NCBI GenBank assembly: GCA_964637955.1
Contig: CAZWXQ010000005.1
Coordinates: forward strand, 18,993-82,992
DNA: 64,000 bases
Source: an uncultured Gammaproteobacteria bacterium
Lineage (GTDB): Bacteria > Patescibacteriota > Microgenomatia > Levybacterales > UBA12049
Reading direction: 5' to 3'
Shown: piece after piece, positions 4,180 through 32,617 of the stretch
Layout: each line of letters starts with the position of its first letter
Numbering within the stretch: the stretch's first letter is position 1
Made by a program: the position numbers and the translations under genes
Notes under the pieces: model-generated
What the model saw: the letters and a program-made list of their open reading frames with translations, nothing else
Told to the model about the DNA's origin: nothing
Database searches by the model: none

Positions 4180-4214
4180 ACTCAAGCTAAGGTAAAAAAG
4201 AGTAGAGTGTAATA

Positions 4215-4330: not shown

Positions 4331-4432
4331 ATAGTCAAAAGAATATCAAAGCATGACTATAATGTCATTTTATATCCTTATATGAAGATTATGTATTTTT
4401 AATTTCTTTAAATTTTGATATATGATTAAGTT

Positions 4433-4786: not shown

Positions 4787-4858
4787 CTTATTTTTTCAAT
4801 TAAAAGAACGCAAACTAATTGCTTAGAAATAATTCGTAATTAGGTTTAACTAAGTATA

Positions 4859-4887
4859 ACTTGAAATTAAAACAAGTTACGCGTATT
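4859..4887 (+). promoter_or_regulatory. candidate sigma70-like promoter TTGAAA-N17-TATTAT upstream of 4900 gene
   Basis: ttgaaattaaaacaagttacgcgtattat. Confidence 0.3.
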
Positions 4888-4899
4888 ATATTTTGAATT

Positions 4900-8491: not shown

Positions 8492-8543
8492 CCTCTCGCT
8501 AGTACGAGAATTAGCTTCCCCAATCAACTTGCTCAATTATCCG

Positions 8544-8572
8544 TTTACACTGAACTGGCAATCTGTTAATAT
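8544..8572 (+). promoter_or_regulatory. candidate promoter TTTACA-N17-TAATAT, -10 ends 10 nt before ATG 8582 (near-leaderless)
   Basis: tttacactgaactggcaatctgttaatat. Confidence 0.3.
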
Positions 8573-8581
8573 CCTGGCATA

Positions 8582-9889: not shown

Positions 9890-9895
9890 GTAGAT

Positions 9896-9903
9896 GTATA
9901 ATC
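9896..9903 (+). promoter_or_regulatory. extended -10 element TGTATAAT immediately after stop of 8582..9889, start of a about 170-nt structured leader
   Basis: gtagatgtataatc. Confidence 0.3.
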
Positions 9904-9921
9904 TTATTAACAGAGTTCCTA

Positions 9922-10072
9922 CTTAGATTTCGATCTAAGTGTAAGTAACTTTAAATCTCTCCCGCTTAGCGGAATAGTAAAGAGATTAAAGACCCAAGAG
10001 CTTTCGGCTTTGGGATAACTAACTCTAAATCTCTTCCTCTGAAGAGGAATCGATAAGAGATTAGTAAGGAGG
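9922..10072 (+). promoter_or_regulatory. structured 5' leader: hairpin H1 (CUUAGAU-uucg-AUCUAAG), element A' (9949..9987), GC hairpin (9993..10014), element A (10016..10062), then SD AAGGAGG; candidate cis-regulatory RNA / riboswitch-like tandem
   Basis: Element core: UAAC(U)AACU(C/U)UAAAUCUCU - variable hairpin - AUCGAUA/AAUAGUA - AGAGAUU; outer stem AAUCUCU/AGAGAUU; second copy at 46887..46965. Confidence 0.45.
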
Positions 10073-10080
10073 TGAAAAAT

Positions 10081-10497
10081 ATGGCAAAATTAAATCCTTA
10101 TATGCATTTTAAAGATAATGCAAAAGAAGCTATGGAATTTTATAAATCTGTCTTAGGTGGAGAACTCACGATGACTACTTTTAGAGAAGGTATGCATGAT
10201 CAAAGCCCTACAGCTGACAATATAATGCATGCACAGCTAACTGTTGGCCCAGAAATGACGCTTATGGCTTCAGATACGCCTCCTGAAATGCAAGCAAATC
10301 CAGGTGCAAGCGTAACTATTTCTCTTAGCGGAGAGGAAAGTGATGAAGAAAAGCTAAAGGGATATTGGGAAGGTCTTTCAGAAGGTGGAACCGTAAATTA
10401 TCCTTTAGAAAAAGCTCCATGGGGAGATACATTTGGAATGCTTACCGATAAATTCGGAATGGAATGGATGGTAAACATCGCTGGTCCAAAGCAATAA
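10081..10497 (+). CDS. VOC-superfamily protein, PhnB/YjdN-like (glyoxalase/bleomycin-resistance fold)
   Basis: LNPYMHFKDNAKEAMEFYKSVLGGEL ... GMEWMVNI pattern of PhnB-like family; ATG 10081 is 8 nt after AAGGAGG (ORF-track start 10072 is a GTG inside the SD). Confidence 0.6.
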   Translation: MAKLNPYMHFKDNAKEAMEFYKSVLGGELTMTTFREGMHDQSPTADNIMHAQLTVGPEMTLMASDTPPEMQANPGASVTISLSGEESDEEKLKGYWEGLSEGGTVNYPLEKAPWGDTFGMLTDKFGMEWMVNIAGPKQ

Positions 10498-10519
10498 TTC
10501 ATTCGACCTAAAATCTCTT

Positions 10520-10546
10520 AAAAGCTCACGAAAGTGAGCTTTTTTG
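10520..10546 (+). terminator. rho-independent terminator
   Basis: aaagctcac-gaaa-gtgagcttttttg. Confidence 0.6.
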
Positions 10547-10601
10547 ATGAACTTAATTTGTAAATAAATATTAAGCGTGCTCCTTATGTTAAAATTCTAT
10601 T

Positions 10602-11009
10602 ATGCAAAGCACAGAAAATTTAACTAAAAAACAGCTTGCCGTACTTGAGGCTGCAAAAAAACATATTAAGGATACTTATAAGGAAGGCGTAACAAGCATG
10701 GTTACGATTCTAGCCACTAAATCTGGCATGCAATATACAGGTGCAAATGTTAAGTATAAAAAAATTTGGAAGTGTATTTGCTCAGAAAGAGTTGCAATTG
10801 CAAAAGCTATGGAAGCGAATGATAGTGAATTCGATACTATTACTACAATTAAATATTTTCCAGAAACTGATTCTTTTGAAGTAATAAACATGTGCGGTGA
10901 ATGTAGGCAAATCGCCATATGTCACAAACCTCTTACTGTTATCGCAGATGATGAAGGCAAGTTAAAAGCATTATCCATTGAAGATCTATTGCCATTCCCT
11001 TATTCATAA
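10602..11009 (+). CDS. cdd: cytidine deaminase-fold protein (small tetrameric CDA / blasticidin-S-deaminase-like)
   Basis: Zinc-ligand motifs CSERVAI (C/H-A/S-E) and MCGECRQ (PCxxCRQ); 135 aa. Confidence 0.6.
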   Translation: MQSTENLTKKQLAVLEAAKKHIKDTYKEGVTSMVTILATKSGMQYTGANVKYKKIWKCICSERVAIAKAMEANDSEFDTITTIKYFPETDSFEVINMCGECRQIAICHKPLTVIADDEGKLKALSIEDLLPFPYS

Positions 11010-11061
11010 GGCCATAAGACCTATAGTGCAATTTATGAAATCATGATGTATAATTCACTTT

Positions 11062-13212
11062 ATGAGTCCGGAAATAGCACTAGATATTGATAGATCAACT
11101 GAACTAAATCAAGTTCGTGATCTTGTAAATAAAAAGCTAACGGATGCTCTTGTACCACCTGAAAAACTTCTAAATGGTGATATAAGATTTCAATCAGTTC
11201 TTTACATGAGCTATTGGCACCAAAGACTTCACAATAATACACTAGAACAAAATAGAATTAAGACTCATTTGGAAGAATATTTGGGAACTGCAGTTCCTGA
11301 TTCAACTATAGCTGCAGGAAATTTGTTGTCTAGCCCTGATCTTTCAGAAGCATCCAAGTCGTTTGTTGAAACACTTATGACTCCAACCAAAACTGTGGAT
11401 CTAGTGATTACAAGACAAAGTCCAGATAATGAAAATGAAACGGAAGTATTAAGTCTTGAAAGAGGATATTATCCTTTTGGCTCTGCGCTTCCTGGAGGAA
11501 TAATAAAAGATAGCGATGAAAGTAATGATTTAGATATCCCTCAAAATGTTTTCGCTGCACTAAGGGTTGCTGGAGATAAAGTACTAGGCCTAGGTGATGA
11601 AGCACAGTACTCAATTAGAACAAATGAAAGTGGCAAAACTTATTATGAAGTCTATTCTGAAAACGATTCTGCATCAGTAAGAATTCATCCTGAAGACGAA
11701 GGTGGTTATACATACAGAGAAAATATTAAATCTACTATACGTCCTGCTGACCCAAGACACATAGTGGACACAGTAGCATTTCGATCTGAGCTAATAGGAG
11801 AGCCTAAGACTAATCTTAAGTGGATAAAGAAGTCTGAGATCATGTCAGTAAATGAAACTACTGGCGGATTTGCGTTTGGACACCATAGAGAAATTGTTGC
11901 TCATATCACAAGTCAATCGTCGGTCGAAAAAGAAAGAGAAATGAGCGAACGTGAATTTGTAAGATCAATCATAAATAATCCTCTCGATGCATATAAAGCT
12001 CTTAAAGAAAGATTTGATAAAGATGGTGGAAGCTCCGAAACTTCTTTTCCTGAACTATTTCCTGCTGTAGATAAAATACTTTTAGATTTATTCAAGCATG
12101 AAATCAATCAAATGTGTGAAGATATTCCTCTTCTTGCAGGAATTAGAGACAAAGCAGTAATTTCACTTAGACAAGTCTCTCTTAAAAATAGAACTTTTAT
12201 GCCATATCTACCTACACTTTTAGCTATCACTGAAGGAATTACTTTTTTTGATGTAGTTTCTAGACAAAAAAAAGGATTTTACGATGAAATGCCAAAAGAT
12301 AGAATAGTCGAACATAATCCAGCCGAAACTCAGTATGCTCAGTACCATATGTATAGATACAAATACAGATTTAATGAAATGCTAAGTATGCTTCCAGGAG
12401 AAATTGTAATTCCTACATTCGAACCTCTGTCTGCAACAGATTTGATGAAAGTCAGAGGAGTTCCGGTAAGATTTGTCGGACTTGAGGAAGATTTTGTTTA
12501 TGTTGATGAATTCGAGCAATCTCCCGAAGAATTCTTAATGCATGATGTCAATCATTCCTGGAGAATGATCATGGAAGACAGAAAATATATGGAGGAGAGC
12601 GGAATGAGTAGAGACCAATTTGTTGAAGAGTCAACAAGATTCTCCAAGGTATATTTAGATCATATAAAGATACTAAAGTCAGATACCGAAGAAGAAAGAG
12701 AAATTAAAAAATTAAAGAAGATAATCTTATTCGAAGTAGTACATGAAGATGCACGACCATTTTTGCGAGACGTAATCACTAGATTTATACAAATGCAGGA
12801 AGGTAAACCGGTTCCATTTGAAGTTCCAAGAATCGACAAGGAAACTGGTTACATGGATGTTGTTGATACTTTAGATACTGGAATAAGTACTCTTTCTTAT
12901 GTCAGAAATAAACTTCAACATGGATTTTATGATCATATTGATGCTCAGCTCCCTCAAATAGTTGATCCAAAATACAGAACTGCGGCATGGATTTCATGGG
13001 CAGCGTATGAAATGCTTGTTGAATTAGGAGCTGACCCTGTGCAAGAAGCAGAGTTAGATGCACATGGAAATGTTTCATTTGAGTGGCTCATGAAAAGAAC
13101 ATGTGCAGTCGGACCAGACAATATTCATGATGAAATATCAGAAGATCCTGACTTAGCAGTTTATGGCGATGGAGCAGATAAACTAAACCCTAAAAGATAT
13201 CAGGCAACTTGA
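11062..13212 (+). CDS. large hypothetical protein (716 aa), no recognisable domain
   Basis: Uninterrupted ORF, acidic, no motif recognised. Confidence 0.45.
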   Translation: MSPEIALDIDRSTELNQVRDLVNKKLTDALVPPEKLLNGDIRFQSVLYMSYWHQRLHNNTLEQNRIKTHLEEYLGTAVPDSTIAAGNLLSSPDLSEASKSFVETLMTPTKTVDLVITRQSPDNENETEVLSLERGYYPFGSALPGGIIKDSDESNDLDIPQNVFAALRVAGDKVLGLGDEAQYSIRTNESGKTYYEVYSENDSASVRIHPEDEGGYTYRENIKSTIRPADPRHIVDTVAFRSELIGEPKTNLKWIKKSEIMSVNETTGGFAFGHHREIVAHITSQSSVEKEREMSEREFVRSIINNPLDAYKALKERFDKDGGSSETSFPELFPAVDKILLDLFKHEINQMCEDIPLLAGIRDKAVISLRQVSLKNRTFMPYLPTLLAITEGITFFDVVSRQKKGFYDEMPKDRIVEHNPAETQYAQYHMYRYKYRFNEMLSMLPGEIVIPTFEPLSATDLMKVRGVPVRFVGLEEDFVYVDEFEQSPEEFLMHDVNHSWRMIMEDRKYMEESGMSRDQFVEESTRFSKVYLDHIKILKSDTEEEREIKKLKKIILFEVVHEDARPFLRDVITRFIQMQEGKPVPFEVPRIDKETGYMDVVDTLDTGISTLSYVRNKLQHGFYDHIDAQLPQIVDPKYRTAAWISWAAYEMLVELGADPVQEAELDAHGNVSFEWLMKRTCAVGPDNIHDEISEDPDLAVYGDGADKLNPKRYQAT

Positions 13213-13991: not shown

Positions 13992-15374
13992 ATGACAAAG
14001 CAATTACAAAGCAATGCATCAGAATTTTTATTTGCAAGAAAAAAACTTAAATCTCCTGCAATAATTAATTTACTGTTATCTACTTCATTTGGGCTAAATG
14101 CCATATTTTATGCTGCATGGCTAGGCTATTCAATTGGAATTTGGGCACTTTTGATTCAATTAGCATGGTCTATTAGTTTTTTTCTTTTAATTCCTAAATC
14201 AAAATATTTTAGTAAAGTTAATAGCTTGCATGATTTATTGGGTCAAAAATTTGATAATAAAACAAAATTAATAGCTTCAATTTGTAGTCTAATCGGACTA
14301 AATTACTTAATAGCTTGGGAAGTAAGCATAGATAAATCAGTAATAGCACCACTGCTTCCAAATACTTCATTACCTCCAGAGATCTTTGCAGGAATGATAA
14401 TTGGATTCTTTGTAATAGTTGCCATATTTTATACTATTAATTTTGGCATAAAAGGCAATGCAAATGCAGATAAATTCTTAAACGCGTTAAAAATGGTTAT
14501 CTTCATAGCTATTTGTTCAATTGCAATTTATGAATTTCTTAAATTACCACGAGAAATGATTATCTCATCGGTGTTTCCGCCAATTAGTAAGATCGTGATA
14601 AATCTAGGAATCATCGGATTTATGACAAATATCTTATTTAACTTAAGTTGGCAATTCGTAGACAATTCTTCATGGCAAAGTATCATAAGCGGATCGAAAT
14701 CAAAATCAAACGCTAGCGCAATAAACTTAAAGCAAAGTGGAATAATTATATTTTTTACAGTAAATTTATTTGCTACAATTCTTGGAATTACACTCGCACA
14801 TTTCAGTAATTTAACTCCTGACAGTTTATTCTCAGCAACTGCTGGAATCATACCTCAATTTGAAAGTATAGTTTCGCTAGGAATAATCATGCTCAGCATT
14901 GCCTCAATGATGTCACTTGCGGATGGAATGATTTTAACTTCAGCGCTTACCATAAATGTAGATCTTTTTAAGTATTTTAAATTTGCTAAAAATTACGACG
15001 AAAAGATAAAAATGAAATTTATAAAAATATCAGTAGTTATTTTTGGATTAATAAGCGTTTGGGGAATTAGCTTCATATTTAACATTCTCAATATTAATTT
15101 ATTTGAATTTATTTACATAATAATTATTACTCAACTTGCTTTAATTGGACCTGTTATTTTTGCTCTATATTCAAAAGATTCGAAAGGGGCGAATATGTGG
15201 AAAGCAATTATAATCGCCTTATTTGTAGGATTTGGGTCTGTACTAGTAGGAACAGTTTCTGAAAATAAAGTATTTATAGATGCTGCTGGAACAGTTACTA
15301 TTTTTAGTTCAGTATTTACCGCTTGGGTTATTGTAAAACTGAAATGTTTTAATTTAAAACTTAATCTAAGGTAG
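13992..15374 (+). CDS. polytopic membrane protein, probable secondary transporter (11-12 TM)
   Basis: 460 aa highly hydrophobic with regularly spaced TM helices; family not assignable from sequence alone. Confidence 0.45.
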   Translation: MTKQLQSNASEFLFARKKLKSPAIINLLLSTSFGLNAIFYAAWLGYSIGIWALLIQLAWSISFFLLIPKSKYFSKVNSLHDLLGQKFDNKTKLIASICSLIGLNYLIAWEVSIDKSVIAPLLPNTSLPPEIFAGMIIGFFVIVAIFYTINFGIKGNANADKFLNALKMVIFIAICSIAIYEFLKLPREMIISSVFPPISKIVINLGIIGFMTNILFNLSWQFVDNSSWQSIISGSKSKSNASAINLKQSGIIIFFTVNLFATILGITLAHFSNLTPDSLFSATAGIIPQFESIVSLGIIMLSIASMMSLADGMILTSALTINVDLFKYFKFAKNYDEKIKMKFIKISVVIFGLISVWGISFIFNILNINLFEFIYIIIITQLALIGPVIFALYSKDSKGANMWKAIIIALFVGFGSVLVGTVSENKVFIDAAGTVTIFSSVFTAWVIVKLKCFNLKLNLR

Positions 15375-15986: not shown

Positions 15987-17039
15987 ATGCCTAGAGAAGA
16001 AAAATTAACGCCAGAACCTGGCTTACTAGAGAAATTATCACCACTTCGTGCTGAAATTAGCGCGTTATCAGATAATCCTCAAGCTCAATCTGAATTAGTA
16101 CAAACTTGGTTTTTAGAGCATCCAGAAAATCTAGCTAGAGATGTGGAAGATTTAACTATGATCTGCGTTCTAGAATATGACGAAAGAAAACTTCTTACAG
16201 ATCCTATTCTTGGAAACTGGTTAATGGGACAAATTGATAAGCTTACTCCAGAATCACCTACACAAGCAGAAGCATTAGCTAAAACGAAAGAAATATTTGG
16301 TCTTTTAAGATTTCATGATTCTCGATTTGGAAATGAAACAGGTAACAAAATTGCTGAAAATAATCTTTATGATGAGCTCAATGCATTACTTATTTCCGAT
16401 CCCGATACAGTTAAATATACAGTTGGCGAAGTAAGAAAAATAATGATGAATGCTCAAGATGGAGTTATGGAGCATGTACTAAGTGGCCGCTACAAAACCG
16501 GCCTAGAACATGGAATATTAGGACCTATGGATATTTTTTGGTATGGAACTACGTTAAATTTTGAAATAGAATCCCAATTTCATGAAGTAGAGCCAATGGA
16601 CGCCAGAATTTTGGTTTTAGACGACAAGGACGCTGAAGACTGGTATAAAAGACTCGTTGCTGCCGGCTTTAAGGATGATCCAGATCAACAAGGACATTTT
16701 ACTGATCCGTCCTTAGCATTAGTAGCTCTTTTAAATGGAAATTATGATGTTATTTTATCTGATTTAGATTTAGGGGAAGGACAAATGTCTGGAATAGACT
16801 TCGCTAGAATTGCATCTGCAATTCAGCGAGCAAAAGGTATTAAAGATCCTCTAATTTCAGTTTTTTCTTATGATCAGGCTCTTTTAGAAGAAGCCAATAG
16901 AACAATTGGTAGATATAGCGACAATCCTGTCTTATTCCAGCAAGTTAACGGTGGAAATAATAATAAAGTGGGTTTTACAGGATATGAATTTGGAAGAGAT
17001 GTTCGGACTGAACTATACGTCAGAGAAAATTTCCATTGA
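15987..17039 (+). CDS. orphan response-regulator receiver (REC) domain protein with novel about 190-aa N-terminal domain
   Basis: C-terminal RILVLDDKDAEDW ... YDVILSDLDLGEGQMSGIDFARIASAI matches REC fold (acidic pair, phospho-acceptor D, conserved G-D/SG). Confidence 0.5.
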   Translation: MPREEKLTPEPGLLEKLSPLRAEISALSDNPQAQSELVQTWFLEHPENLARDVEDLTMICVLEYDERKLLTDPILGNWLMGQIDKLTPESPTQAEALAKTKEIFGLLRFHDSRFGNETGNKIAENNLYDELNALLISDPDTVKYTVGEVRKIMMNAQDGVMEHVLSGRYKTGLEHGILGPMDIFWYGTTLNFEIESQFHEVEPMDARILVLDDKDAEDWYKRLVAAGFKDDPDQQGHFTDPSLALVALLNGNYDVILSDLDLGEGQMSGIDFARIASAIQRAKGIKDPLISVFSYDQALLEEANRTIGRYSDNPVLFQQVNGGNNNKVGFTGYEFGRDVRTELYVRENFH

Positions 17040-17320: not shown

Positions 17321-20158
17321 ATGAGTGAAATACCAAATCCAGGCATTGCGGAATTTAAGGGAATAGAAAGAATTGCTGAATATGACAGAACAGGCAACAG
17401 CATTTATCTGGATCCTCAAGTTTTTAGCGAAATACGCCCATATAGACCGAGAGTCAGAGGAGTAACATATGAAGTTAATGCCTCAATTAGTGGAGTCTTA
17501 AGAGAAAGTCCCATCGTTGAATGGATTCAAGCAAATCCTGAAGGATTCATGTCGCATGCAGGAAGAGATGTGCATATAAGAAGAGCTCTAGCTACAATTG
17601 ATGATCTGACAGTATCGCTTCAGACAGGAGACCAAGATTCGCAAGATTTATATATGCAATCTCTTGCTGTGGGAGAAAAAATCTCTGAGCTGGATATTCT
17701 TGCAAGACCGTATATACCAAAATCATTATCAACACCTGAACCTGAAGATGAGATGGCTGAATCTCCTATTTCAACAGAAGTTATTTTGCCTAGCATTCAG
17801 ATGAAACGAAACTTTGATTGGAAAAGTGCGCTGATTAAATTATTTAGTAAACTTCCTGAAGGAGCGACTATACCTATCAAACCTATCAAAACTCCGAACA
17901 TTCCACGAATTCCTATTAGAACGCCTCAAGCGCCACAAGAACGTATAGATGATTCCGCCTCGCGAAAAAGAAGAAGAGTGAGGGAGATTGATGATTCCGA
18001 CCTTCCTTCAAGATCCTTTCTTCTCGACGATTTTTACATTGCAGGTAGGGAAAAACTTACTAACCCAAGAGGAAGAGGAAATACTGTTGTTAGAGTAAAA
18101 AATAGCAGAAGACCAATCGCCACAAATGGATTTGTAGTAACTAAAGTTTACAACAGATATGATCCCGAATCAGGACTCATGACGACAGATTCGGAAAAAA
18201 CTCGAATTAGATATTATGACATTGTGCATATAGATTCCACGAGCATCAGCGCCAATATAGGTGTTATTGATCCAATGAAATTTAAAACTATCGGTATACC
18301 TTTTTATGTTACTGACACAGATAATAGGACGTTTGAGCCTGACATAAAAGATAAACTTATAAATTTACAGATTGTAGGAAAAGACGGAGTCATAGTTGAA
18401 AAATATGATCTAGTAGAATATGTAGATGTAGATGGGCTTGGAAATTTAAGCCTATCACTTGAAGACATGCCTGATGAAGTAAGAAGAAAATTAACAGGTC
18501 AAAGTCTTACCATAAATGCTTTTTATAAAACCGGTTTCAATGAACGTACAAAAGTTCATCAGTCAGAACTTCTTGGTCCATTCTCCGAAGATGAAGATTT
18601 CAGATTAAATCTTTACCCCGAAGACATAGCAAATCTTATTAGAAGACTAAGAGAAGTTATAAAAGACGGAAGCGAAAGAGATCCATTTTCAATCCTCACT
18701 CAATATTTATCAGTGTGGGCTCTTGAATACGATATTAAAGATGCAGCAATAAGCAAGGATGATCCTGTGTCTTTTAATCAGACTGAAAGAGTTCTCGAAA
18801 GAAAATTAGCTTCATGTGAAGGTGCAAATATTGCGCTTGGACAATTAATGAGACATCTTATAAAGCCTGGTGAAGGAATTGCATTTGTGACAGGGTATCA
18901 ATTGGGTACAGGCGGCACTGCAGATGATATGAGTGGACATATGATGGTGATGTATGTAGATAAAAAAGGAAACAAAACTTATCTCGATGCTACTCCCTGG
19001 CTTCCCGAACAACGCAAAAGAGTTGAAAATGAAAGAAGAGCCGCTGTGCGAGCAAAAGAAGTCTGGTATAGAAGCACAAAGTATTTGAGAGAAAACCCCA
19101 ATTTTTTGAAAGAATTTAGATCCCTTAAAGAAAGAGCGCGTAATGCAACAACTAGATTATCTGACTCCTGGAACATAGGTGACTTGACCTATGAACTAGA
19201 ACAGGAATTGAGAGATTTTGGAATATATATAGCAAAGTTTAAACAAGAACCAGCTGTTTATTTTGAAGAACCTAAATTGATAGTTCCCCAACCAGATCCT
19301 AATGATCCAAAAGGTGCCGAAAGAACCCGTGAAAGAATTGGTCTTATTCCCGTTATAAGAAAGCATTTTAAAGTACCAGAAAGGATGAAAGCTTTTTGGC
19401 CTGAGAGCTATGATTATATTGATGGCACATTAGAAATCAAAATCCCTAATTATTATCGTGATTTTTATAGAGGATTTTATTACTCCAAGCCAAAAGATCC
19501 TAGCGCTTATTATATGGGAGACTCACCGGCGTCCAGCGAGGCAAGAGCAAGACGTGATTTGCTCTATAATGGCCGTATTCAAAGAAAAACTATTTCCGCA
19601 ATGACAAGAGTACTAGAGGCTTCTACGTATGCTTCTGCTCAAAATATTCAAGCATATGAAACTCTTGCAACTTTAGTCGAAGCGGAATATGAAAGACAAA
19701 AAAGAGCATTAATAGCATGTTTTGAATCAATTCCCGGAGGATTAGGGCAGGATTTGGACAACTTCTGGAACCAGATGCCTTTTATAAGACTTATTGATTC
19801 ACCGTTTCCTCATTTAACAGACTTTTTCACTAGGTCAATAGATTCAAGTTCTCTTGGACATCTTGTAACTTCATCCGGAAACATAGAGGAAGATTTTAAT
19901 TTAAGAATTTCAGAATGGAGAACTGAGATGGATAAGAGAATTGCATCATTTTATGAATTTATTCAATATGCTCCTAGAAAATCAAAAAGTCCAACAGTGG
20001 TAGAAGTTCCAAGTACATTTTTATGGAGGCAAATGAAAGATGTTAGACCAACTGAGCCTGAAGAAAGACCTGATATTGTTGATCCATTGGGTACGTTTGC
20101 GCTTCTGGCAAGACATATGGATGACTATAAATATCCCCATACGAGAATTAATAGATAA
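17321..20158 (+). CDS. large hypothetical protein (945 aa) with central transglutaminase-like cysteine-protease core
   Basis: Cys-His-Asp arrangement CEGANIALGQLMRHL...GIAFVTGY...GHMMVMYVDKKGNKTYLDATPW resembles TGc domain (C..FA.....G......HAW.EVY....W..DPT). Confidence 0.5.
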   Translation: MSEIPNPGIAEFKGIERIAEYDRTGNSIYLDPQVFSEIRPYRPRVRGVTYEVNASISGVLRESPIVEWIQANPEGFMSHAGRDVHIRRALATIDDLTVSLQTGDQDSQDLYMQSLAVGEKISELDILARPYIPKSLSTPEPEDEMAESPISTEVILPSIQMKRNFDWKSALIKLFSKLPEGATIPIKPIKTPNIPRIPIRTPQAPQERIDDSASRKRRRVREIDDSDLPSRSFLLDDFYIAGREKLTNPRGRGNTVVRVKNSRRPIATNGFVVTKVYNRYDPESGLMTTDSEKTRIRYYDIVHIDSTSISANIGVIDPMKFKTIGIPFYVTDTDNRTFEPDIKDKLINLQIVGKDGVIVEKYDLVEYVDVDGLGNLSLSLEDMPDEVRRKLTGQSLTINAFYKTGFNERTKVHQSELLGPFSEDEDFRLNLYPEDIANLIRRLREVIKDGSERDPFSILTQYLSVWALEYDIKDAAISKDDPVSFNQTERVLERKLASCEGANIALGQLMRHLIKPGEGIAFVTGYQLGTGGTADDMSGHMMVMYVDKKGNKTYLDATPWLPEQRKRVENERRAAVRAKEVWYRSTKYLRENPNFLKEFRSLKERARNATTRLSDSWNIGDLTYELEQELRDFGIYIAKFKQEPAVYFEEPKLIVPQPDPNDPKGAERTRERIGLIPVIRKHFKVPERMKAFWPESYDYIDGTLEIKIPNYYRDFYRGFYYSKPKDPSAYYMGDSPASSEARARRDLLYNGRIQRKTISAMTRVLEASTYASAQNIQAYETLATLVEAEYERQKRALIACFESIPGGLGQDLDNFWNQMPFIRLIDSPFPHLTDFFTRSIDSSSLGHLVTSSGNIEEDFNLRISEWRTEMDKRIASFYEFIQYAPRKSKSPTVVEVPSTFLWRQMKDVRPTEPEERPDIVDPLGTFALLARHMDDYKYPHTRINR

Positions 20159-23422: not shown

Positions 23423-23495
23423 CACGCTCGAGAGGAATCGAACCCCCAACCCCTTCGTCCGAAGCGAAGTGCTCTATCCGTTGAGCTACGAGCGC
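23423..23495 (-). tRNA. tRNA-Arg (anticodon UCG), CCA not encoded
   Basis: Reverse complement folds as GCGCUCG-UA-GCUC-AACGGAUA-GAGC-A-CUUCG-CUUCGGA-CGAAG-GGGUU-GGGGG-UUCGAUU-CCUCU-CGAGCGU-G; 73 nt. Confidence 0.8.
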
Positions 23496-25789: not shown

Positions 25790-26731
25790 GTGATATTTAA
25801 CCGATCAAATTTACTTTCGTGGGCCAAATTTCTTATCGGCTGGCCCCTTGCTCTTCTTTCAATCGCTTTTGTTATTAAGTTTGTCGCCGACCAAAGCGAA
25901 GGAGTTACTTTTAGTCTTTCAGATATAAATTACTTTTATTTGGGCATAGGTATAGGTCTTTTTCTTTTGTATTACTTTCTAAGAACTTACATATGGAAAC
26001 TGCTGATTGAGAGCGATGGTAGTAAAGTTGATTTAGTAGAAAACACATATAGATTTGCGTTCTCTGAGCTTAAAAGATTTACTCCTGGAAACATTTGGTC
26101 CATCATAAGTCGTGCATCTTTATTTACGGATTTAGGTGTCGAAAAAAGATTGGTAGGAATTTCAATGATTGCAGACATTCAACTCGTTGTAATAGGGTGT
26201 TCTTTAGTTTCAGTTTTTGCAATTCCATTCATTCTTAATTCATCGAATGAACTCCACAGTAAACTTTATTCACTAATTCCTTTCTCAATCATCTTAATAA
26301 TAATTTATTTTGTTGTTATAGGAGTAATTTACAAAAAAAGATATGGGAAATCTGATGGAATTATAAAAAGTTTTTTTCTACCTGGATTCAAGAATAAAAT
26401 CAAACTTCAATCAACTGTACTTACATTCATAACTTACTTCATTTATGGATTAGGAAATTTCTTTGTTTTAATTTCGATCGCAAACACTAGCTTTGTAAAT
26501 TCTATAGCAATATCGGCATTTTTTACTTTTGCTCTTTTGGTAGGCTATCTTACATTTATTACACCTATGGGACTCGGAGTAAGGGAAATAATCGTAACTC
26601 TTGGCTTATCTGAAATTCTAAGCCCTGCTGATGCTGGAGCAGTATCTATTTTTTCAAGAATAATACTTATTCTTTCTGAGCTTTCATTTTTATGTTTTAT
26701 TTTTTTATGGAAAAAGAAAGCAATAAAATAA
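25790..26731 (+). CDS. polytopic membrane protein, flippase-like / LPG-synthase-TM-like (UPF0104-like)
   Basis: 8 predicted TM segments, 313 aa; family assignment tentative. Confidence 0.35.
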   Translation: MIFNRSNLLSWAKFLIGWPLALLSIAFVIKFVADQSEGVTFSLSDINYFYLGIGIGLFLLYYFLRTYIWKLLIESDGSKVDLVENTYRFAFSELKRFTPGNIWSIISRASLFTDLGVEKRLVGISMIADIQLVVIGCSLVSVFAIPFILNSSNELHSKLYSLIPFSIILIIIYFVVIGVIYKKRYGKSDGIIKSFFLPGFKNKIKLQSTVLTFITYFIYGLGNFFVLISIANTSFVNSIAISAFFTFALLVGYLTFITPMGLGVREIIVTLGLSEILSPADAGAVSIFSRIILILSELSFLCFIFLWKKKAIK

Positions 26732-28140
26732 TTAGTTTCTTAAAAAAATATTGGCAAGAGATATGCTTAGTACTTGCTTCAATTACTTATTTTTTTTATT
26801 TTTCAATCGCAAGCATTCTTAAATATAATAATTTCTACACAGGTCGATTTGACTTGGGAAACATGACCCAAACTGTCTGGAATACAAAACATGGAGACTT
26901 CTTCATGCTCACAAATCCCAATGGCACTAATGAAGTTAGCAGATTAGCATTTCATGCAGATTTTATCTTGGCTTTTTTTGCTCCGTTTTATTTTCTTTGG
27001 GAAGATCCAAGGCTTTTACTTATTATTCAATCAGGAATCTTGGCATTAGGGGGAATTTTTGTTTTCCTAATTGCAAACGAAGTTTTAAAAAATAAAACAA
27101 TCTCACTTGTTCTTTCAATTTGTTTTTTCCTAAATCCGGCAGTAAATTACACAAATCTTTTTGATTTCCATTCTGTAACTTTAGCAACAACATTTCTCTT
27201 GGCTGCGTTTTATTTCATCCTTAAAAAGAAATGGTTCTTAGTTGTTTTATTTTTATTTCTCGCAGGAATCACAAAAGAACAAGTTTGGGGAATAACATTT
27301 ATATTTGGCCTTTATCTTATTTTTATAAGCAAACAAAAACTATTAGGCATAGTTATTTCAATTCTTTCGCTTTCAACTTTTTATATTTTATTCTGGCATG
27401 CAATTCCATACGCAGCCAAAGATCAACACTTTGCACTCGAATTTTATTCTGATTACGGAAATTCACCGGGAGAAATTATAAAAAATATATTACTAAATCC
27501 TATCGAAGCCACTAAAACGCTAATTCATCCAGACAGAATAATTTATCTTAAACAATTATTTATTCCTCTTGGATACTTATCAATATTTTTCTTTCCATTT
27601 CTAATTTTCGCTTCTCCTGATTTATTTATAAATCTGATGAGCGCCTCTCCTCAAATGCACCAAATATATTATCAATACTCATCTACTGTGACTCCTTTTA
27701 TTTTTATTGCTGCGATTTATGGAATTAGATTTTTAATTAAGAAAATTCCTGAAATATCATTTAATCTAATTTCAGTTTCAGTTTTAATTTTTTCATTAAC
27801 CTCAGCATATAATTATGGTCCACTTATCTTTGCCAAAAAACCAAATGACTCCTGGTACAAAAAACCGCTTGCAAACAAGCAGATAGTAAATAATTATCTA
27901 AATTCAATTTCCCAAGATGTAAAAATCTCTGCATCAAATGATTTAGGCTCACACTTATCTCACAGAAAAGATATTTACGTTATGCCACTTGGTCTTGAAA
28001 AAGCTGACCTAGCAATGCTTCTCATGCATAACTCAAATGATCAAGAAAGGCAAAATCTTGAAGAAATGAAAGTTAACCCAAATTTTACTCTTGTTTTTAA
28101 CGACGGAGAATTTTATGTGTTTAAAAGAATTACTCCTTAA
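26692..28140 (+). CDS. DUF2079-family integral membrane protein (putative envelope glycan/lipid-modifying enzyme)
   Basis: YNNFYTGRFDLGNMTQTVWNT...SRLAFHADFILAFFAPFY matches DUF2079 N-terminal signature; start could be ATG 26707. Confidence 0.5.
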   Translation: MFYFFMEKESNKIISFLKKYWQEICLVLASITYFFYFSIASILKYNNFYTGRFDLGNMTQTVWNTKHGDFFMLTNPNGTNEVSRLAFHADFILAFFAPFYFLWEDPRLLLIIQSGILALGGIFVFLIANEVLKNKTISLVLSICFFLNPAVNYTNLFDFHSVTLATTFLLAAFYFILKKKWFLVVLFLFLAGITKEQVWGITFIFGLYLIFISKQKLLGIVISILSLSTFYILFWHAIPYAAKDQHFALEFYSDYGNSPGEIIKNILLNPIEATKTLIHPDRIIYLKQLFIPLGYLSIFFFPFLIFASPDLFINLMSASPQMHQIYYQYSSTVTPFIFIAAIYGIRFLIKKIPEISFNLISVSVLIFSLTSAYNYGPLIFAKKPNDSWYKKPLANKQIVNNYLNSISQDVKISASNDLGSHLSHRKDIYVMPLGLEKADLAMLLMHNSNDQERQNLEEMKVNPNFTLVFNDGEFYVFKRITP

Positions 28141-28154: not shown

Positions 28155-28964
28155 ATGATAAATGTTATAAAAGCTGATGGAAATCTAGAGCCATTCAGTG
28201 AAGAAAAGGTAATTGACTCAATAAGACGCGCAGGAATTCCCAAATCTATAGAATCACAAGTCTTGAGCCACATTCAAGGAAGACTTTATGAAAATATTCC
28301 TACTTCTGAAATCTATAGACATATTGAAGAATTTTTAGCCAATACTCATAACGATTATCCAAGAAGTAAATATTCTTTAAAAAAAGCAATTATGGAACTT
28401 GGGCCAACTGGCTTTCCATTTGAGATGTTCATTTCTTATTACCTTAAAGCTGAAGGTTATAAAACGGAGGTAGGTCAAATTCTTTTAGGCAAATGTGTAA
28501 AACACGAAGTGGATGTAATTGCTTCAAAGGGTAACGAGAAGATTATGGTAGAGTGTAAATTTCACAATAGACTTGGCGTCAGGTCTGATCTTCATGTAGC
28601 GCTCTACACAAAAGCACGCTTTGACGACCTTAAAGAAAAACATGGATTCACAAAAGCTATGATCGTAACAAATACTAAAGTCACTCTAGATGCTCTTGCA
28701 TATGCTAACTGTGAAAACGTAAAAGTCCTTTCATGGAGCTATCCAGATCGTGAAAGCTTAAGAGATCTGGCTGAAAAACATAAACTTTACCCTATTACTC
28801 AACTTTCGTTTTTGTCTCTTAATCAAAAACAGGAACTTTTGGCTCGTGACGTAGTTCTTATTAGCCAGATCTGTAAAAATCCTGCGGTTCTTAATCAAAC
28901 CTCAATTCCTGAAGACAAAAAAAGAGAAGTTATTAAAGAGGCAAACGAAATCTGCACACTATAA
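28155..28964 (+). CDS. ATP-cone domain fused to Mrr-like (PD-(D/E)xK) restriction-endonuclease domain
   Basis: N-terminal MINVIKADGNLEPFSEEKVIDSIRRAG... (ATP-cone as in NrdR/RNR); C-terminal FEMFISYYLKAEGYKTEVGQ..HEVDVIASKGNEKIMVECKFHN (D..ExK nuclease core). Confidence 0.6.
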   Translation: MINVIKADGNLEPFSEEKVIDSIRRAGIPKSIESQVLSHIQGRLYENIPTSEIYRHIEEFLANTHNDYPRSKYSLKKAIMELGPTGFPFEMFISYYLKAEGYKTEVGQILLGKCVKHEVDVIASKGNEKIMVECKFHNRLGVRSDLHVALYTKARFDDLKEKHGFTKAMIVTNTKVTLDALAYANCENVKVLSWSYPDRESLRDLAEKHKLYPITQLSFLSLNQKQELLARDVVLISQICKNPAVLNQTSIPEDKKREVIKEANEICTL

Positions 28965-29531
28965 ATCGTTCGGGAATCTTCTAGTTAAATTGGCAACATT
29001 TGCTATTCCTTCAAAAGTCATCTGTAATATATCTTGATCATTTAATGAACCTAATCCTTGAGCCTGAAGGCCAATATATCTATAAAAAGCTTGGGTTTTA
29101 ATGTAATCTTCTCTTGGTAAACCATTTATGCTATCAAGACCTAAATCTCTATCTATTTCATAAGCTCTCATAAATGCGGCTTTTCGACTCGTAGGCTCAA
29201 TGTATTTAAGATGTTTTCCGGAGGAACCAAAAAAATATTCAGAGCCGACCATCATTAATGGATAATATTCTCCTTTATAGATATTTCCAATTGTTAGTCC
29301 TTCAAGGGTTTTAAGAAATTGCTCTTTTAGCATAAACAAATCCCTCAACTCTTCTTGTGTAGGAACAAGAACTTCTATAGTTTGGTCTTCATTTTCTCCT
29401 ACTATTTGATGCATCAAAAAATTATAACCCAAAGAATGAGCTGCGGTATAAAATAAATGTGAAGGCATAAGAGGGCTTGACCTATATTTATCAAGCCTAA
29501 GCCCTGGCAATTGCCCTTCTGCCTCTATCAT
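28959..29531 (-). CDS. hypothetical protein (190 aa) co-oriented immediately downstream of dinB
   Basis: 10-nt gap to dinB stop; no motif recognised. Confidence 0.4.
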   Translation of the reverse strand: MIEAEGQLPGLRLDKYRSSPLMPSHLFYTAAHSLGYNFLMHQIVGENEDQTIEVLVPTQEELRDLFMLKEQFLKTLEGLTIGNIYKGEYYPLMMVGSEYFFGSSGKHLKYIEPTSRKAAFMRAYEIDRDLGLDSINGLPREDYIKTQAFYRYIGLQAQGLGSLNDQDILQMTFEGIANVANLTRRFPNDL

Positions 29532-29540
29532 GATGTAGGA

Positions 29541-30794
29541 TTATACCACGCTTCCGACCAATTTCTGTCTTTCAAATTTATCAGCCATATAACCATTTGG
29601 CACAGTTTTTAGATTTGGGCCGTTTAATACAAAGCCATTCCGAATAGTGTGATCACCAAACTTTTCATTTATATGGTCTATCACATTTTGTATTTTGTTG
29701 TTTTTTGGCTGATCAAAAAGAGAGAGAGTAACGCTGCCCGAATCTTCAAGATTTCCTGTCCAAATACTAATTTGTCGAACCATTGACTGACTTCCTGGAA
29801 GCTTTGCCAAGCCCCACTCATCATATAAAAGTTTACAAATCCTAAATATATCCACTCCTTGATCGATATAAGCAGTCGTGGTCTTTCTACCGTGATATGT
29901 ATTTTCTCCCCCAAGATAAAATCCGACCGTTCTTGCTTTTTTATTTATTCTTCGAAGCTTTATTCCTACTTCTTCACATAATTCAAATACATTTTGAAGA
30001 ATCACATGCTGATCATATTCATTTTTTGGCATACAATAATTCCTGCCAACTGATTTTGTTTCACTTGGTATGTAGTAGGGAATAACTTCACGATCATCTT
30101 TGGCAAGCCCTAAATTTTTAAGAAAGTGCCCCTCTACATCTTTAAACTCATATATTAAAACGTCAAGACTAGCTGCCCTAAGCTGAAGGGGAGTATATAT
30201 GCCAATTTTATTAAGTCTTTTTTCAATTCTCTCTCCAATTCCACAAAAATCAGTAAGCTTAGTCTTGGAATATACTTTCTCCACTTCCTCTGGATTAATC
30301 TCTACGAATCCATTTGGCTTATCCATCCCTGAAGCAAGCTTCGCAAGAAGCTTATTATGACTAAGTCCTACCGACACCGTAACGTACTCTCCAATTTCAT
30401 CATTTATTCTAGTCTTAATTTTTTCAATTAACTTATACCTGTCCCCGAATAAATTTTCAGTTGCTGTAATATCCATAAAAACTTCATCAAGAGAAAATAG
30501 CTCAACATATGGCGAATAATCTTTACATATATTTAAAAACTTTTGAGTAAGTTCCCAGTATCTCTCAAAACTCGCTCTTACGGTAATAATCTGGGGACAA
30601 AGCTTTTGAGCCTCCCAAACCCGTGTCACAGATTTTACTCCCATCTTTTTAGCTTCTCTTGAAGCAGCAATAATACAAGTTCTTCCATTTGCAGCAGTAA
30701 CTCCAATAGGTTTTCCACGAAGAAGGGGATTAAACTGCTGTTCACAAGAAGCAAAATATGAATCAAAATCTATATGTAAAATTACACGTTTCAT
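29541..30794 (-). CDS. dinB: Y-family DNA polymerase IV (DinB/UmuC family)
   Basis: HIDFDSYFASCEQ (catalytic DxD), ...PIGVTAANGRTCIIAASREAKKMGV..., SLDEVFMDIT, little-finger domain. Confidence 0.85.
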   Translation of the reverse strand: MKRVILHIDFDSYFASCEQQFNPLLRGKPIGVTAANGRTCIIAASREAKKMGVKSVTRVWEAQKLCPQIITVRASFERYWELTQKFLNICKDYSPYVELFSLDEVFMDITATENLFGDRYKLIEKIKTRINDEIGEYVTVSVGLSHNKLLAKLASGMDKPNGFVEINPEEVEKVYSKTKLTDFCGIGERIEKRLNKIGIYTPLQLRAASLDVLIYEFKDVEGHFLKNLGLAKDDREVIPYYIPSETKSVGRNYCMPKNEYDQHVILQNVFELCEEVGIKLRRINKKARTVGFYLGGENTYHGRKTTTAYIDQGVDIFRICKLLYDEWGLAKLPGSQSMVRQISIWTGNLEDSGSVTLSLFDQPKNNKIQNVIDHINEKFGDHTIRNGFVLNGPNLKTVPNGYMADKFERQKLVGSVV

Positions 30795-31042
30795 AAGCTA
30801 ATTTTTAAAATTTAATATTTAGATTTTATTGAAAATTTTAAATTGAAAATTTCATGCTAGTATCCAGAACAAATACATTCGGAGAATCTTTTCGGGGAAT
30901 TTTAAAAGTTTTAAATTTAAACTTTTGGGCAGCATTAGAATAATATACGTGAATAATACTAGAATGTAAATAGAATAAAACACGAACATATTAGAACCAA
31001 AATAGATCATTTTTAAAAATCCAAAATATATATAATAAATTC

Positions 31043-32617
31043 ATGAAGAAAGTAAAAATGCTTATACTACAAAACAAACTTCTTATTCTCCTGCTTCTTA
31101 CTTACTCGTTTTTATTTACATTTTTTATTTATTTCTACTATCAAAGGCTGGGGGCTTTTGGGTGCTTCGATGACTGTTTTTATTATATGGGTGGATATTT
31201 TCTTCTCAAAGGAGAAAGAATTTATACTGACTTTTTCTTTAACCACAGTTTTTTAGTGCCAGTTATTAGTTTTCTAATCCAAAAAATCACTCACCCCACA
31301 GAACTTTATACCTTTATCCTTTTTCATAAACTTTTTATATATTTATTTTCATTTTTATTTGGATTAATCCTAATCTTTAGATTCAAAACTCAAGCATTTC
31401 TAACATTAATTTTTTACGAATTAACTAAATTTTTTACATTCGGAGATAGATTCCTCGGAGAAAGCCTAGTAGTTTATCCTGTGCTATATTTACTTGGAAT
31501 TTCCTGGGAAAAAATCCATGCAAAGAAACTTCATAGATTTGACTACTTGTTGTCAGGAATTTTTGTTTACTTTATTATATTCGCAAGAGAACCTTACGTA
31601 CCGTTAGCTTTATTCTTATTTCTAGTAATTCTCTGGGGCAAAAAAGACATTAAGCTTAAAAAATATGCTGTGATAAGCTTCCTTACTCCAGCAATTGTTT
31701 CATTCATTTTAATTTCGCCAAAAGATTTTTTTACTAACGTTTTTACACTTAACAAATCACAAATTGAAACAGAATCATCAAAAAATGGCGGAATCCTAGG
31801 AGTACTCATATATCCCCTGAGAATTTATATTGAAGGCTTTTGGAATCTTTTCAGGCAAATCACCATCTTTTTTATGTCAGCTTTTTTAATTTCAGGTATT
31901 TATTACTCTTTGAAGTTAAGAAGATTGGGGTTTATTATTTTACTTATTGCGCTGAGCCTTGCTGCAGTAAGACCAGAGATTCCTGGCACTATTTTTTACA
32001 AGGCATATCACATGAATATTTGGTATGCAGTCCTATTATTTTCTACATTTTTAGTTATTTTTGAAATATTAAAATTAAAAGCTACTAAATTCAAAATCGT
32101 AATATTATTGCCATTTTTTCTTTTATTTGCATATATATTTACTTCTCCAAACCTGATTATTAATGAAAAAATAAACAAGATTGAAGAATATAATTTTGGC
32201 TATTCTGGATATTATGTTTATGGAAATGCTATTAAAAATTTATCTAGCGACAATGACACGATATTCGTAGAAGAAAAGGATGAATTAATTAATGTACTCT
32301 CAAATCTAAAATCTTCTTATAAATATAATGGATATACCTCTTTTATGCCTTTGATTGATGTGTATAGAGATGAAAGACTTAATATGTTTAAGAATGCTCC
32401 TCCAGATTTTTACTATGACGCCTGCTATCAACTTGATAAAACACACAGAGCTTATACTCCAAACATTGAAAAAAACTTTACAAGAATATATATATTCAAT
32501 AAACCATCCTGTTTACTTATTAACAACAAAAAAATTAACAATATAACTGATGAGAAATGGAAGAAAATTAAAAACTTAGGCTTTCAAAAGCCTGAAAAAA
32601 CTAAACAGCAATATTAA
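31043..32617 (+). CDS. large polytopic membrane protein, possibly GT-C-type glycosyltransferase
   Basis: 524 aa, about 12 TM, extracellular C-terminal domain; family tentative. Confidence 0.35.
   Translation: MKKVKMLILQNKLLILLLLTYSFLFTFFIYFYYQRLGAFGCFDDCFYYMGGYFLLKGERIYTDFFFNHSFLVPVISFLIQKITHPTELYTFILFHKLFIYLFSFLFGLILIFRFKTQAFLTLIFYELTKFFTFGDRFLGESLVVYPVLYLLGISWEKIHAKKLHRFDYLLSGIFVYFIIFAREPYVPLALFLFLVILWGKKDIKLKKYAVISFLTPAIVSFILISPKDFFTNVFTLNKSQIETESSKNGGILGVLIYPLRIYIEGFWNLFRQITIFFMSAFLISGIYYSLKLRRLGFIILLIALSLAAVRPEIPGTIFYKAYHMNIWYAVLLFSTFLVIFEILKLKATKFKIVILLPFFLLFAYIFTSPNLIINEKINKIEEYNFGYSGYYVYGNAIKNLSSDNDTIFVEEKDELINVLSNLKSSYKYNGYTSFMPLIDVYRDERLNMFKNAPPDFYYDACYQLDKTHRAYTPNIEKNFTRIYIFNKPSCLLINNKKINNITDEKWKKIKNLGFQKPEKTKQQY

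Follow-up and report, generated by a model that had tools for sequence, protein, structure and literature searches.

An ATP-Cone Joined to an AF1548-Type Nuclease Domain: a Large Bacterial Family of Putative Adenine-Nucleotide-Gated Nucleases

Gene and Domain Organization

The window analyzed here, a 64,000-nucleotide stretch of contig CAZWXQ010000005.1 (assembly GCA_964637955.1, placed in the Levybacterales of the Patescibacteriota), harbors a complete coding sequence at 28155..28964 of the forward strand. It starts with ATG and encodes a protein of 269 amino acids (aa) in which an ATP-cone, a PD-(D/E)xK nuclease of the AF1548/Mrr type and a tail of the helix-hairpin-helix (HhH) type follow one another. 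A first, sequence-only reading of this DNA had noticed the segments VIKADGNLEPFSEEKVIDSIRRAG, HEVDVIASKG and VECKFH, all contained in the translation of this open reading frame (ORF), and had proposed an ATP-cone fused to an Mrr-like nuclease core. Both assignments are borne out: Pfam places the ATP-cone (PF03477) on residues 2-68 (E = 1.9e-9, 38.4 bits vs. a cut-off of 25.8) and Mrr_cat (PF04471) on residues 87-191 (E = 8.9e-8, 32.7 bits vs. a cut-off of 21). A third domain had been overlooked. The AF1548-like_C model (PF22357) matches residues 212-266 below threshold (E = 0.017, 15.7 vs. a cut-off of 23.9), but in the family it detects 71 of 111 proteins, with a best E-value of 7e-15; PF03477 detects 103 of them. 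These 111 representatives, 34-51% identical to the window protein, are the homologues over which residue conservation is counted throughout. A scan against NCBIfam gave nothing meaningful for the nuclease ORF.

The protein consists of three domains: a sensor, a nuclease and what is probably a non-specific DNA-binding tail. The ATP-cone spans residues 2-82 (28158..28400, forward strand, like all parts of the gene), as indicated by PF03477, a profile match to NrdR and Foldseek. The PD-(D/E)xK core occupies residues 83-195 (28401..28739), where the Pfam match and similarity to AF1548 coincide, and the C-terminal helical domain covers residues 196-269 (28740..28961), assigned by profile and domain model to AF1548-like_C with a predicted HhH-type DNA-binding fold. 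An AlphaFold2 model built from the 111 homologues (predicted local distance difference test, pLDDT, 96.3; predicted template-modeling score, pTM, 0.91) runs from an N-terminal β-hairpin and helices through an α/β core to a helical tail. The modeled cone is a β-hairpin (residues 3-13, strands 3-5 and 11-13) capping a bundle of four helices (16-25, 30-41, 50-62, and 67-80). For the N-terminus, a Foldseek search of the PDB returns NrdR (9fxk_F and 7p37_A, root mean square deviation, rmsd, 2.3-2.4 Å over 81-82 columns), and many ATP-cones of ribonucleotide reductase (RNR) α-subunits match as well. A single-sequence search of the PDB finds NrdR only marginally. The N-terminus is thus an ATP-cone by fold as well as by sequence. 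For the nuclease domain, Foldseek returns MspJI, NucS (2vld, E = 6.5e-4), Can2, Card1, and Cdn1, with E-values of about 1e-3.

A separate model of the tail (residues 196-269) has a pLDDT of 83.8 and matches the tail of 1Y88, the AF1548 structure. It also superposes on a consistent group of DNA-binding proteins of the HhH type, namely BAF, the C-terminal domain of the RNA polymerase α-subunit, the RadA/Rad51 N-domain, Hel308, and the Pol kappa thumb, with template-modeling (TM) scores of 0.55-0.65 that are not significant (E ≥ 0.38). The sequence profile of the tail finds the C-terminus of 1y88 at E = 3.6e-16, followed by the RAD51 N-domain at E = 0.23.

The Nuclease Site and Its Relation to AF1548

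AF1548 of Archaeoglobus fulgidus (1Y88) is the nearest relative of known structure. It matches residues 93-266, that is, the nuclease and the C-terminal domain, with a phmmer E-value of 4.3e-33, and its fold agrees closely (Foldseek E = 7.6e-17, TM 0.86, rmsd 2.3 Å). In AF1548, D38, E51, and K53 were predicted in 2007 to be the catalytic residues of a restriction-like nuclease (PMC1821046), and they correspond to D120, E133, and K135 of the window protein. Together with E90, these residues form a classical E...D...ExK site that is intact here (predicted catalytic codons: E90, 28422-28424; D120, 28512-28514; E133-C-K135, 28551-28559). Twelve columns are invariant in the family: G86, F89, E90, G112, E118, D120, E133, R155, D158, N173, W194, and P213. 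K135 is kept in 110 of the 111. Conservation of the catalytic residues in orthologues, on which the nuclease assignment depended, is therefore firmly established, and a catalytically dead, NrdR-like regulator is rejected, all catalytic residues being invariant or nearly so.

Beyond the D/E/K triad, AF1548 shares most of the remaining nearly invariant positions with the window protein, namely C114, E118, H137, R155, D158, T172-N-T174, C186, W194, and P213. Unlike the window protein, it lacks an ATP-cone and starts at about the GPxGFPFE motif. As an orphan protein from structural genomics, AF1548 offers the family a fold but not a mechanism.

Four further residues outside the classical catalytic set are nearly invariant: C114 (28494..28496), H117 (28503..28505), H137 (28563..28565), and C186 (28710..28712), kept in 109, 108, 104, and 109 homologues, respectively. 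A metal site close to the hairpin of the active site is one possible role for them. At the position of His117, AF1548 carries Gln.

The ATP-Cone and the Junction

The profile of the family's cone segment matches Escherichia coli NrdR at E = 1e-5. In the profile alignment, V4, K6, E12, P13, F14, K18, V19, and I53 correspond to NrdR V51, K53, E59, P60, F61, K65, L66, and I108, with identical or conservative replacements throughout. In NrdR these eight residues contact the adenine nucleotide of the inner site (10.1101/2025.03.28.645925). The equivalent segment, V4-x-K6-A7-x-G9...E12-P13-F14...K18-V19, is encoded at 28164..28211, and the further contact I53 at 28311-28313. The columns are well conserved across the family (K6, G9, and K18 in 109 homologues each, T50 in 104, F14 in 103, I53 in 88, and E12 in 86), so that K6, G9, F14, K18, S22, and T50 each reach at least 92%, with E12 at 77% and I53 at 79%. 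Contact columns lie between 77 and 98% except for V19, which is hydrophobic in 107 of the 111, and P13. The latter, Pro in 41 homologues, is the only one of the eight that is not conserved family-wide, and the equivalent contact in NrdR is made by the main chain.

The cone departs from the canonical pattern at one position of the KR(D/N)G motif. The sequence-only reading had singled out a VxKRDG-like motif for checking: the lysine (K6) and the contacts equivalent to those of NrdR are kept, while the arginine is Ala7 in the window protein, which therefore does not have the K-R pair. Across the family this position is Ala in 64, Ser in 16, Gly in 5, and Thr in 4 homologues, so that 85 of the 111 carry Ala, Ser, or Gly. 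E. coli NrdR, a working ATP-cone, likewise lacks the arginine and has Ser there in the profile alignment, yet it binds ATP, ADP, and AMP (10.1101/2025.03.28.645925). Ala7 is hence no argument for a dead cone. A second departure concerns the outer-site Tyr with which NrdR discriminates ATP from dATP. It apparently has no counterpart here, although this part of the alignment was extended by hand and is uncertain.

These two departures are the starting point for an alternative in which the ATP-cone no longer senses nucleotides and has become a structural or oligomerization module, or a binder of a different ligand, while the nuclease itself is a constitutive housekeeping enzyme. Degenerate ATP-cones do exist in some RNRs, and the missing arginine and apparently missing tyrosine would fit such a history. 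Degenerate cones, however, normally lose residues of the kind that are retained here at 77% or more and that include the NrdR nucleotide contacts, and the NrdR of E. coli shows that a cone with Ser at the arginine position still binds nucleotides. A non-sensing cone is for these reasons quite improbable.

Overall, the cone is the same sensor as that of NrdR and of class I-III RNRs by hidden Markov model, profile, and fold (rmsd about 2.3 Å), with the inner-site contacts kept, and the expected principle is the same: a change of assembly or conformation that depends on the bound nucleotide. The output differs, being a nuclease rather than a Zn-ribbon DNA binder or a reductase, and the protein starts directly with the cone. 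It is not a member of the NrdR family proper, since its match to the NrdR model TIGR00244 reaches 13.6 bits, far below the cut-off of 124.65, and covers the cone only. With the outer-site Tyr apparently missing, the two-nucleotide discrimination between ATP and dATP may not apply.

The junction between the two domains, Y73-x-L75-K...L82-G83-P84-x-G86-F-P-F89-E90 (28371..28424), is among the best-conserved stretches of the protein: G86, F89, and E90 are invariant, and Y73, L75, G83, and P84 are at least 90% conserved. It joins the last helix of the ATP-cone directly to the helix bearing the catalytic Glu90. This arrangement suggests that the junction couples the sensor to the active site and is the likely allosteric route.

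Family Size, Distribution, and Constraint

A search of 5.8 billion proteins gives 6,878 matches among clusters at 90% identity. The best 120 of these are all 265-279 aa long and 57-100% identical to the window protein, and all but one carry both Pfam domains. Among representatives at 50% identity, an exhaustive search finds 1,063 clusters at E ≤ 1e-3, of which 431 reach E ≤ 1e-30; almost all are full-length proteins of 265-295 aa. In a scan of one genome per GTDB species, the family occurs in at least 599 species. Those listed include Patescibacteria (Levy-, Gottesman-, Davies-, Shapiro-, and Chisholmbacteria, Saccharimonadales, Paceibacterota), many cultured Bacteroidota (Tenacibaculum, Tamlana, Flaviramulus, Aestuariibaculum, Pontibacter), Balneolaceae, and Chlorobiota; copies from Chlamydiota turn up among plasmid and metagenome matches. 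Databases already hold the architecture under the generic names "restriction endonuclease" and "ATP cone domain-containing protein," and the searchable literature yields no study of the ATP-cone/nuclease fusion.

Against its nearest relative (88% aa identity), the window gene shows a nonsynonymous divergence (pN) of 0.068 and a synonymous divergence (pS) of 0.73, the latter saturated, for a ratio of about 0.09. Across 21 Levybacteria-like loci, the mean identity to the window is 58% for the nuclease, compared with 50% for the neighboring DUF2079 gene and 39% for the LPG-synthase-like gene, and within this lineage the gene keeps its chromosomal position. A tblastn search of 50,697 phage records found no copy of the family, and a search of 72,556 plasmids found two (Pontibacter actiniarum and Criblamydia sequanensis). 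Among viral structures in BFVD only single domains are matched (TMq ≤ 0.40). The family is a conserved chromosomal gene under strong purifying selection and not a mobile, fast-evolving defence gene.

This distribution bears on the proposal of the sequence-only reading that the protein is a defence or stress nuclease. In the defence version, a restriction-type DNase would be switched on when a phage disturbs the ATP or dNTP pool, degrading phage DNA or causing abortive infection. Defence mechanisms that deplete or sense nucleotide pools are well established, and the Mrr_cat domain is indeed that of Mrr-type type IV enzymes, with which the protein shares the E...D...ExK site. The nuclease domain also resembles that of Can2, Card1, and Cdn1, ancillary nucleases of CRISPR systems that cyclic oligoadenylate activates and that likewise fuse a sensor of an adenine-derived ligand to a PD-(D/E)xK nuclease; weak PADLOC matches to CARF_PDDEXK models (E = 8e-5) point the same way. 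The resemblance is limited, however. The sensor is an ATP-cone and not a CARF domain, the presumed ligand is a housekeeping nucleotide rather than a second messenger, and there is no CRISPR or CBASS context. In the PADLOC CARF matches (E ≥ 8e-5), it is mainly the nuclease part of each model that aligns, and a CARF domain is not recognized in the window protein; the low-rmsd Foldseek matches to CARF nucleases (8bao, 8z4i, and 8q3z) cover 120-145 columns, and longer alignments exceed 10 Å. With the Mrr-type enzymes the protein has fold and chemistry in common, but not a biological role: the only Pfam domains are the ATP-cone, Mrr_cat, and AF1548-like_C, with no Mrr_N, modification-reading, or target-recognition domain, and PADLOC reports no full system. 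In 95 related loci no methyltransferase, toxin, or recognizable defence-island neighbor was noticed, most clusters there having been labeled by similarity to 22 reference proteins, which is not exhaustive. Fixed length and architecture, absence from the phage records, purifying selection, and conserved synteny in a lineage with reduced genomes are unlike the patchy, fast turnover of defence genes. The defence part of the earlier proposal thus finds little to sustain it, and a defence nuclease is very unlikely. The name "restriction endonuclease" is probably a misannotation, family members probably not being restriction enzymes.

Many third-party-annotation metagenome-assembled genomes titled "uncultured Gammaproteobacteria bacterium" (loci L011, L014-L016, L020, L024-L027, and others) carry Levybacteria-type synteny and proteins that are 51-64% identical. 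These titles look like mislabels. L011 is the same contig as L006.

Gene Runs of Distant Orthologues

The two plasmid copies come from different phyla and lie in the same tight run of four genes on the same strand: the ATP-cone nuclease, a hydrolase of the metallo-β-lactamase (MBL) fold, a "thymidine phosphorylase family protein" of about 500 aa, and a ribose-phosphate pyrophosphokinase. The run occupies 1972..6597 on the plasmid of Pontibacter actiniarum (Bacteroidota; locus L090) and 8001..12608 on that of Criblamydia sequanensis (Chlamydiota; L091), where it is flanked by genes for a P-type ATPase, phosphoketolase, α-glucan phosphorylase, acetate kinase, and glucoamylase. It is also found in Owenweeksia (L051), and partial runs occur in L068 and L096; in the latter, which lacks the β-CASP gene, the AMP-phosphorylase-like gene and the gene resembling phosphoribosyl pyrophosphate (PRPP) synthetase stand directly 3′ of the nuclease gene. 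These two genes follow the nuclease in five loci. Of the 54 genome-scan loci (L036-L089), 14 carry the β-CASP gene immediately 3′ of the nuclease gene in the same orientation, separated from it by -29 to +33 bp. So do 4 of 7 further loci (L090-L093), which makes 18 in all.

Searches of the PDB indicate what the partners are. The MBL-fold protein, the product of the β-CASP gene, is closest to the RNase TTHA0252 (E = 8e-75). The "thymidine phosphorylase" is closest to 4ga5/4ga4 (E = 8e-93), compared with ≤ 1e-36 for ordinary thymidine or pyrimidine-nucleoside phosphorylases. The entries 4GA4 and 4GA5 are those of the AMP phosphorylase of Thermococcus kodakarensis.

In loci from Flavobacteriaceae, one to five tandem-type universal stress protein (Usp) genes precede the nuclease gene, and a β-CASP gene, an Hsp20 gene, and small ORFs follow it; genes for PPK2, a protein of the phosphoenolpyruvate synthase/pyruvate phosphate dikinase type, a protein resembling glyceraldehyde-3-phosphate dehydrogenase, and a P-type ATPase recur nearby. 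L058, L062, L063, L065, L086, and L087, among other Flavobacteriaceae loci, are stress islands, with four or five tandem-type Usp genes of about 280 aa each directly upstream. In such islands a conserved ORF of 135 aa (cluster c22, with no confident Pfam match) is often found upstream of the nuclease gene, two NTF2-like ORFs of 140 aa lie downstream, and Hsp20 is downstream in four of the six named loci.

A related trio is known from expression work. In Bradyrhizobium diazoefficiens, the genes for an MBL hydrolase, a PRPP synthetase, and a thymidine phosphorylase family protein (bll3115-3117) are up-regulated under microoxia (PMC6515984). This trio comes without the nuclease. No description of a run composed of nuclease, β-CASP, AMP-phosphorylase-type, and PRPP-synthetase-like genes was found in the searchable literature. 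The distant runs are often set in islands with tandem Usp, Hsp20, P-type ATPase, and PPK2 genes and genes resembling that of glyceraldehyde-3-phosphate dehydrogenase. Taken together, they point to a module for nucleotide and nucleic-acid turnover that is induced under limitation of energy or oxygen, with the nuclease often as its first gene.

The Levybacterial Neighborhood

Upstream of the nuclease gene in the window lie, on the same strand, a membrane-protein gene resembling LPG_synthase_TM (25790..26731) and a DUF2079 membrane-protein gene (26692..28140; Pfam E = 1.7e-65), whose stop codon precedes the nuclease ATG by 14 bp. The three genes are possibly co-transcribed; a functional link is not claimed. 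Downstream, on the reverse strand, an ORF of 190 aa (28959..29531) is convergent with the nuclease gene, the 3′ ends overlapping by 6 bp, and is followed by dinB (29541..30794), encoding DinB/Pol IV (IMS E = 5.7e-45; NCBIfam DNA polymerase IV models). The sequence-only reading was right that the 190-aa ORF and dinB adjoin the nuclease gene, but the arrangement it gave as back-to-back is convergent, tail-to-tail.

Thirty-three Levybacteria-like loci share the gene order LPG_synthase_TM, DUF2079, nuclease. The same order with a convergent DinB gene recurs where the nucleases are 48-88% identical, and DinB lies within three genes in 24 of the 33 loci with DUF2079 upstream; in 16 of those 24 it is directly convergent with the nuclease gene, with 3′ ends that overlap by 4-27 bp in 13. 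Among the 53 loci with no called DUF2079 neighbor, dinB is present in two: L007, a truncated copy of a Levybacteria-like locus with a DUF2079 similarity of 52% at its edge, and L043, labeled Parcubacteria. Across the Patescibacteria the neighbors are specific to their lineage, DUF2079 and DinB marking Levybacteria-like loci and MnmA with a PDDEXK_1 protein marking Paceibacteria-like ones, where a P-type ATPase gene is also found in several classes.

The chief rival to the turnover role suggested by the distant runs is an endonuclease of DNA repair, or one specific for DNA structures, akin to Hjc, NucS, or XPF. Its activity would follow the dATP/ATP pool, and in Levybacteria it would act together with translesion synthesis (DinB, S24 peptidase, SRAP). 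In XPF, Mus81, and Hef, a nuclease core is followed by HhH motifs. The window protein has the same order of modules, a catalytic domain of the restriction-endonuclease fold and then a non-specific DNA binder of the probable HhH type. The Foldseek match to the repair nuclease NucS and the Hjc Pfam model, touched by 8 of the 111 family members, also favor repair, as does the persistence of dinB in 24 of the 33 loci even where it is a divergent paralogue or where S24-peptidase or SRAP genes intervene. The likeness to the XPF group stops at the layout, however: no sequence relationship is detected, the tail is a single unit resembling Rad51-N/BAF rather than (HhH)2, and an ATP-cone stands where those proteins have a helicase-like domain. 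The adjacency to dinB is lost in all but 2 of the 53 other loci, and the two genes, being convergent, are not co-transcribed. Adjacency by itself carries little weight in a lineage whose local synteny is broadly conserved, and the recurrent partners in other phyla are genes of RNA and nucleotide metabolism, not of repair. The adjacency is lineage-restricted synteny of convergent genes, and as a sign of function it is rejected as the main reading; the repair role itself is unlikely.

The interval between the nuclease gene and dinB is unstable. Collinearity between the window and the DNA of the closest relative (L004) extends from 25042 to 28966, stops precisely where the nuclease gene ends, and sets in again at 30927. 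Where the window has 28967..30926, L004 has 8813..11188, with a DinB that is 32% identical to that of the window, an ORF of 86 aa, and an SRAP-domain gene. Other relatives have an S24-peptidase gene (LexA/UmuD-like) or small ORFs between the nuclease and DinB genes. The interval thus looks like a replacement hot spot in which different damage-tolerance genes keep landing, and their recurrence keeps a link to repair alive as a minority reading.

The 190-aa ORF, which the sequence-only reading had taken for a companion of dinB, is an ORFan and is rejected in that role. Its sole match among 5.8 billion proteins is itself, no homologue was found in 89 related loci (tblastn, and phmmer --max on called proteins), and Pfam, NCBIfam, and PADLOC give no match. 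It occupies the spot where the 3′ end of dinB overlaps the nuclease gene in relatives.

Proposed Mechanism and Role

That the protein is a nuclease gated by an adenine-nucleotide sensor is likely, judging from its sequence and model; gating, as first proposed by the sequence-only reading, is plausible because the catalytic residues and the ATP-cone contacts are both conserved family-wide. What we infer about ligand, switch, substrate, and physiological role goes further. The N-terminal ATP-cone would bind an adenine nucleotide (ATP, dATP, or ADP/AMP). Through the conserved junction, the cone would act on the helix with Glu90, the first glutamate of the catalytic set in this metal-dependent, AF1548-type nuclease, and the C-terminal HhH domain would hold the nucleic acid, probably by the backbone of a DNA duplex and without sequence specificity. 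Because every ATP-cone studied so far, in RNRs and NrdR, works by changing assembly or packing, nucleotide occupancy would by analogy most likely alter the oligomeric state or the packing of the domains and thereby turn cleavage on or off. As a guess at the direction, high ATP may hold the enzyme off.

The gene runs of the distant orthologues, with their stress and nucleotide genes, suggest a role in the breakdown of nucleic acid for recycling or catabolism. Most likely the enzyme would degrade nucleic acid, either the cell's own or imported, under adenylate control when energy or oxygen is limiting. The reading as a whole, an adenylate-sensing nuclease for nucleic-acid turnover and nucleotide recycling under energy stress, is given a probability of about 0.5.

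Several points weigh against it. The arginine of the KR motif is absent, with Ala here and Ala, Ser, or Gly in most of the family, and with the outer-site Tyr apparently missing too, the ligand preference may differ from that of RNRs and NrdR. The HhH assignment of the tail derives from model superpositions whose scores are not significant, and RNA may be the substrate. The complete four-gene run is present in three loci only (L051, L090, and L091), and neither the window nor any Patescibacteria locus examined has the context of a stress-gene run. The window's sole β-CASP gene, which encodes a β-CASP/RMMBL protein of the TTHA0252 type (8582..9889, forward strand, 435 aa) and adjoins a ketoacyl-synthase gene, is 18 kb from the nuclease gene; its product is about 30% identical to those encoded directly 3′ of the nuclease in Bacteroidota and Chlamydiota. 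The 64-kb window yielded no gene resembling those for AMP phosphorylase or PRPP synthetase. Since the partner genes are not adjacent in this Levybacteria-like genome, the role is transferred from distant orthologues. Finally, the searchable literature contains no biochemical or genetic test of any family member.

A bolder version of the recycling role, which must be called doubtful, would place the nuclease, as a gated first enzyme, at the entry to an undescribed bacterial pathway in which nucleic acid is digested to recover energy and nucleotides during starvation for energy or oxygen. The ATP-cone nuclease would act first, followed by the TTHA0252-type β-CASP RNase, AMP phosphorylase, and the PRPP-synthetase-like enzyme. 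The ATP-cone would read the adenylate status, and the cell would cut its own or imported DNA or RNA only when ATP falls. De novo nucleotide synthesis is missing from many Patescibacteria, and the AMP-phosphorylase/RuBisCO nucleoside pathway is present in them, which would fit a salvage role; in such nucleotide auxotrophs, the source of this window among them, the same enzyme would feed that known pathway. If this version were true, the cone would be the first shown to work outside the control of ribonucleotide reduction.

Previous work on the ATP-cone has been confined to its part as the master switch of RNRs and of their repressor NrdR, and here it stands on a nuclease. The family is very large and strongly conserved, and even some of the smallest known genomes of bacteria have kept it. 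If the cone gates cleavage, ATP-cone allostery extends to the degradation of nucleic acids, the orphan structure AF1548 gains a function, and the gene run inside Usp/Hsp20 islands points to a testable route of nucleotide recycling in dormancy or hypoxia.

Other Features of the Window

Rfam finds only a tRNA between 20000 and 36000 of the window (RF00005, 61.7 bits), located at 23423..23495 on the reverse strand, about 4.7 kb upstream of the nuclease gene. A promoter and terminator scan of 25600-31100 gives 30 promoter-like sites, compared with 22 ± 5.6 expected in this AT-rich DNA. Five large ORFs of the window have no Pfam match at E ≤ 1e-3: 11062..13212 (716 aa), 13992..15374 (460 aa), 15987..17039 (350 aa), 17321..20158 (945 aa), and 31043..32617 (524 aa). 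The protein encoded by the last of these resembles a hydrophobic membrane protein.

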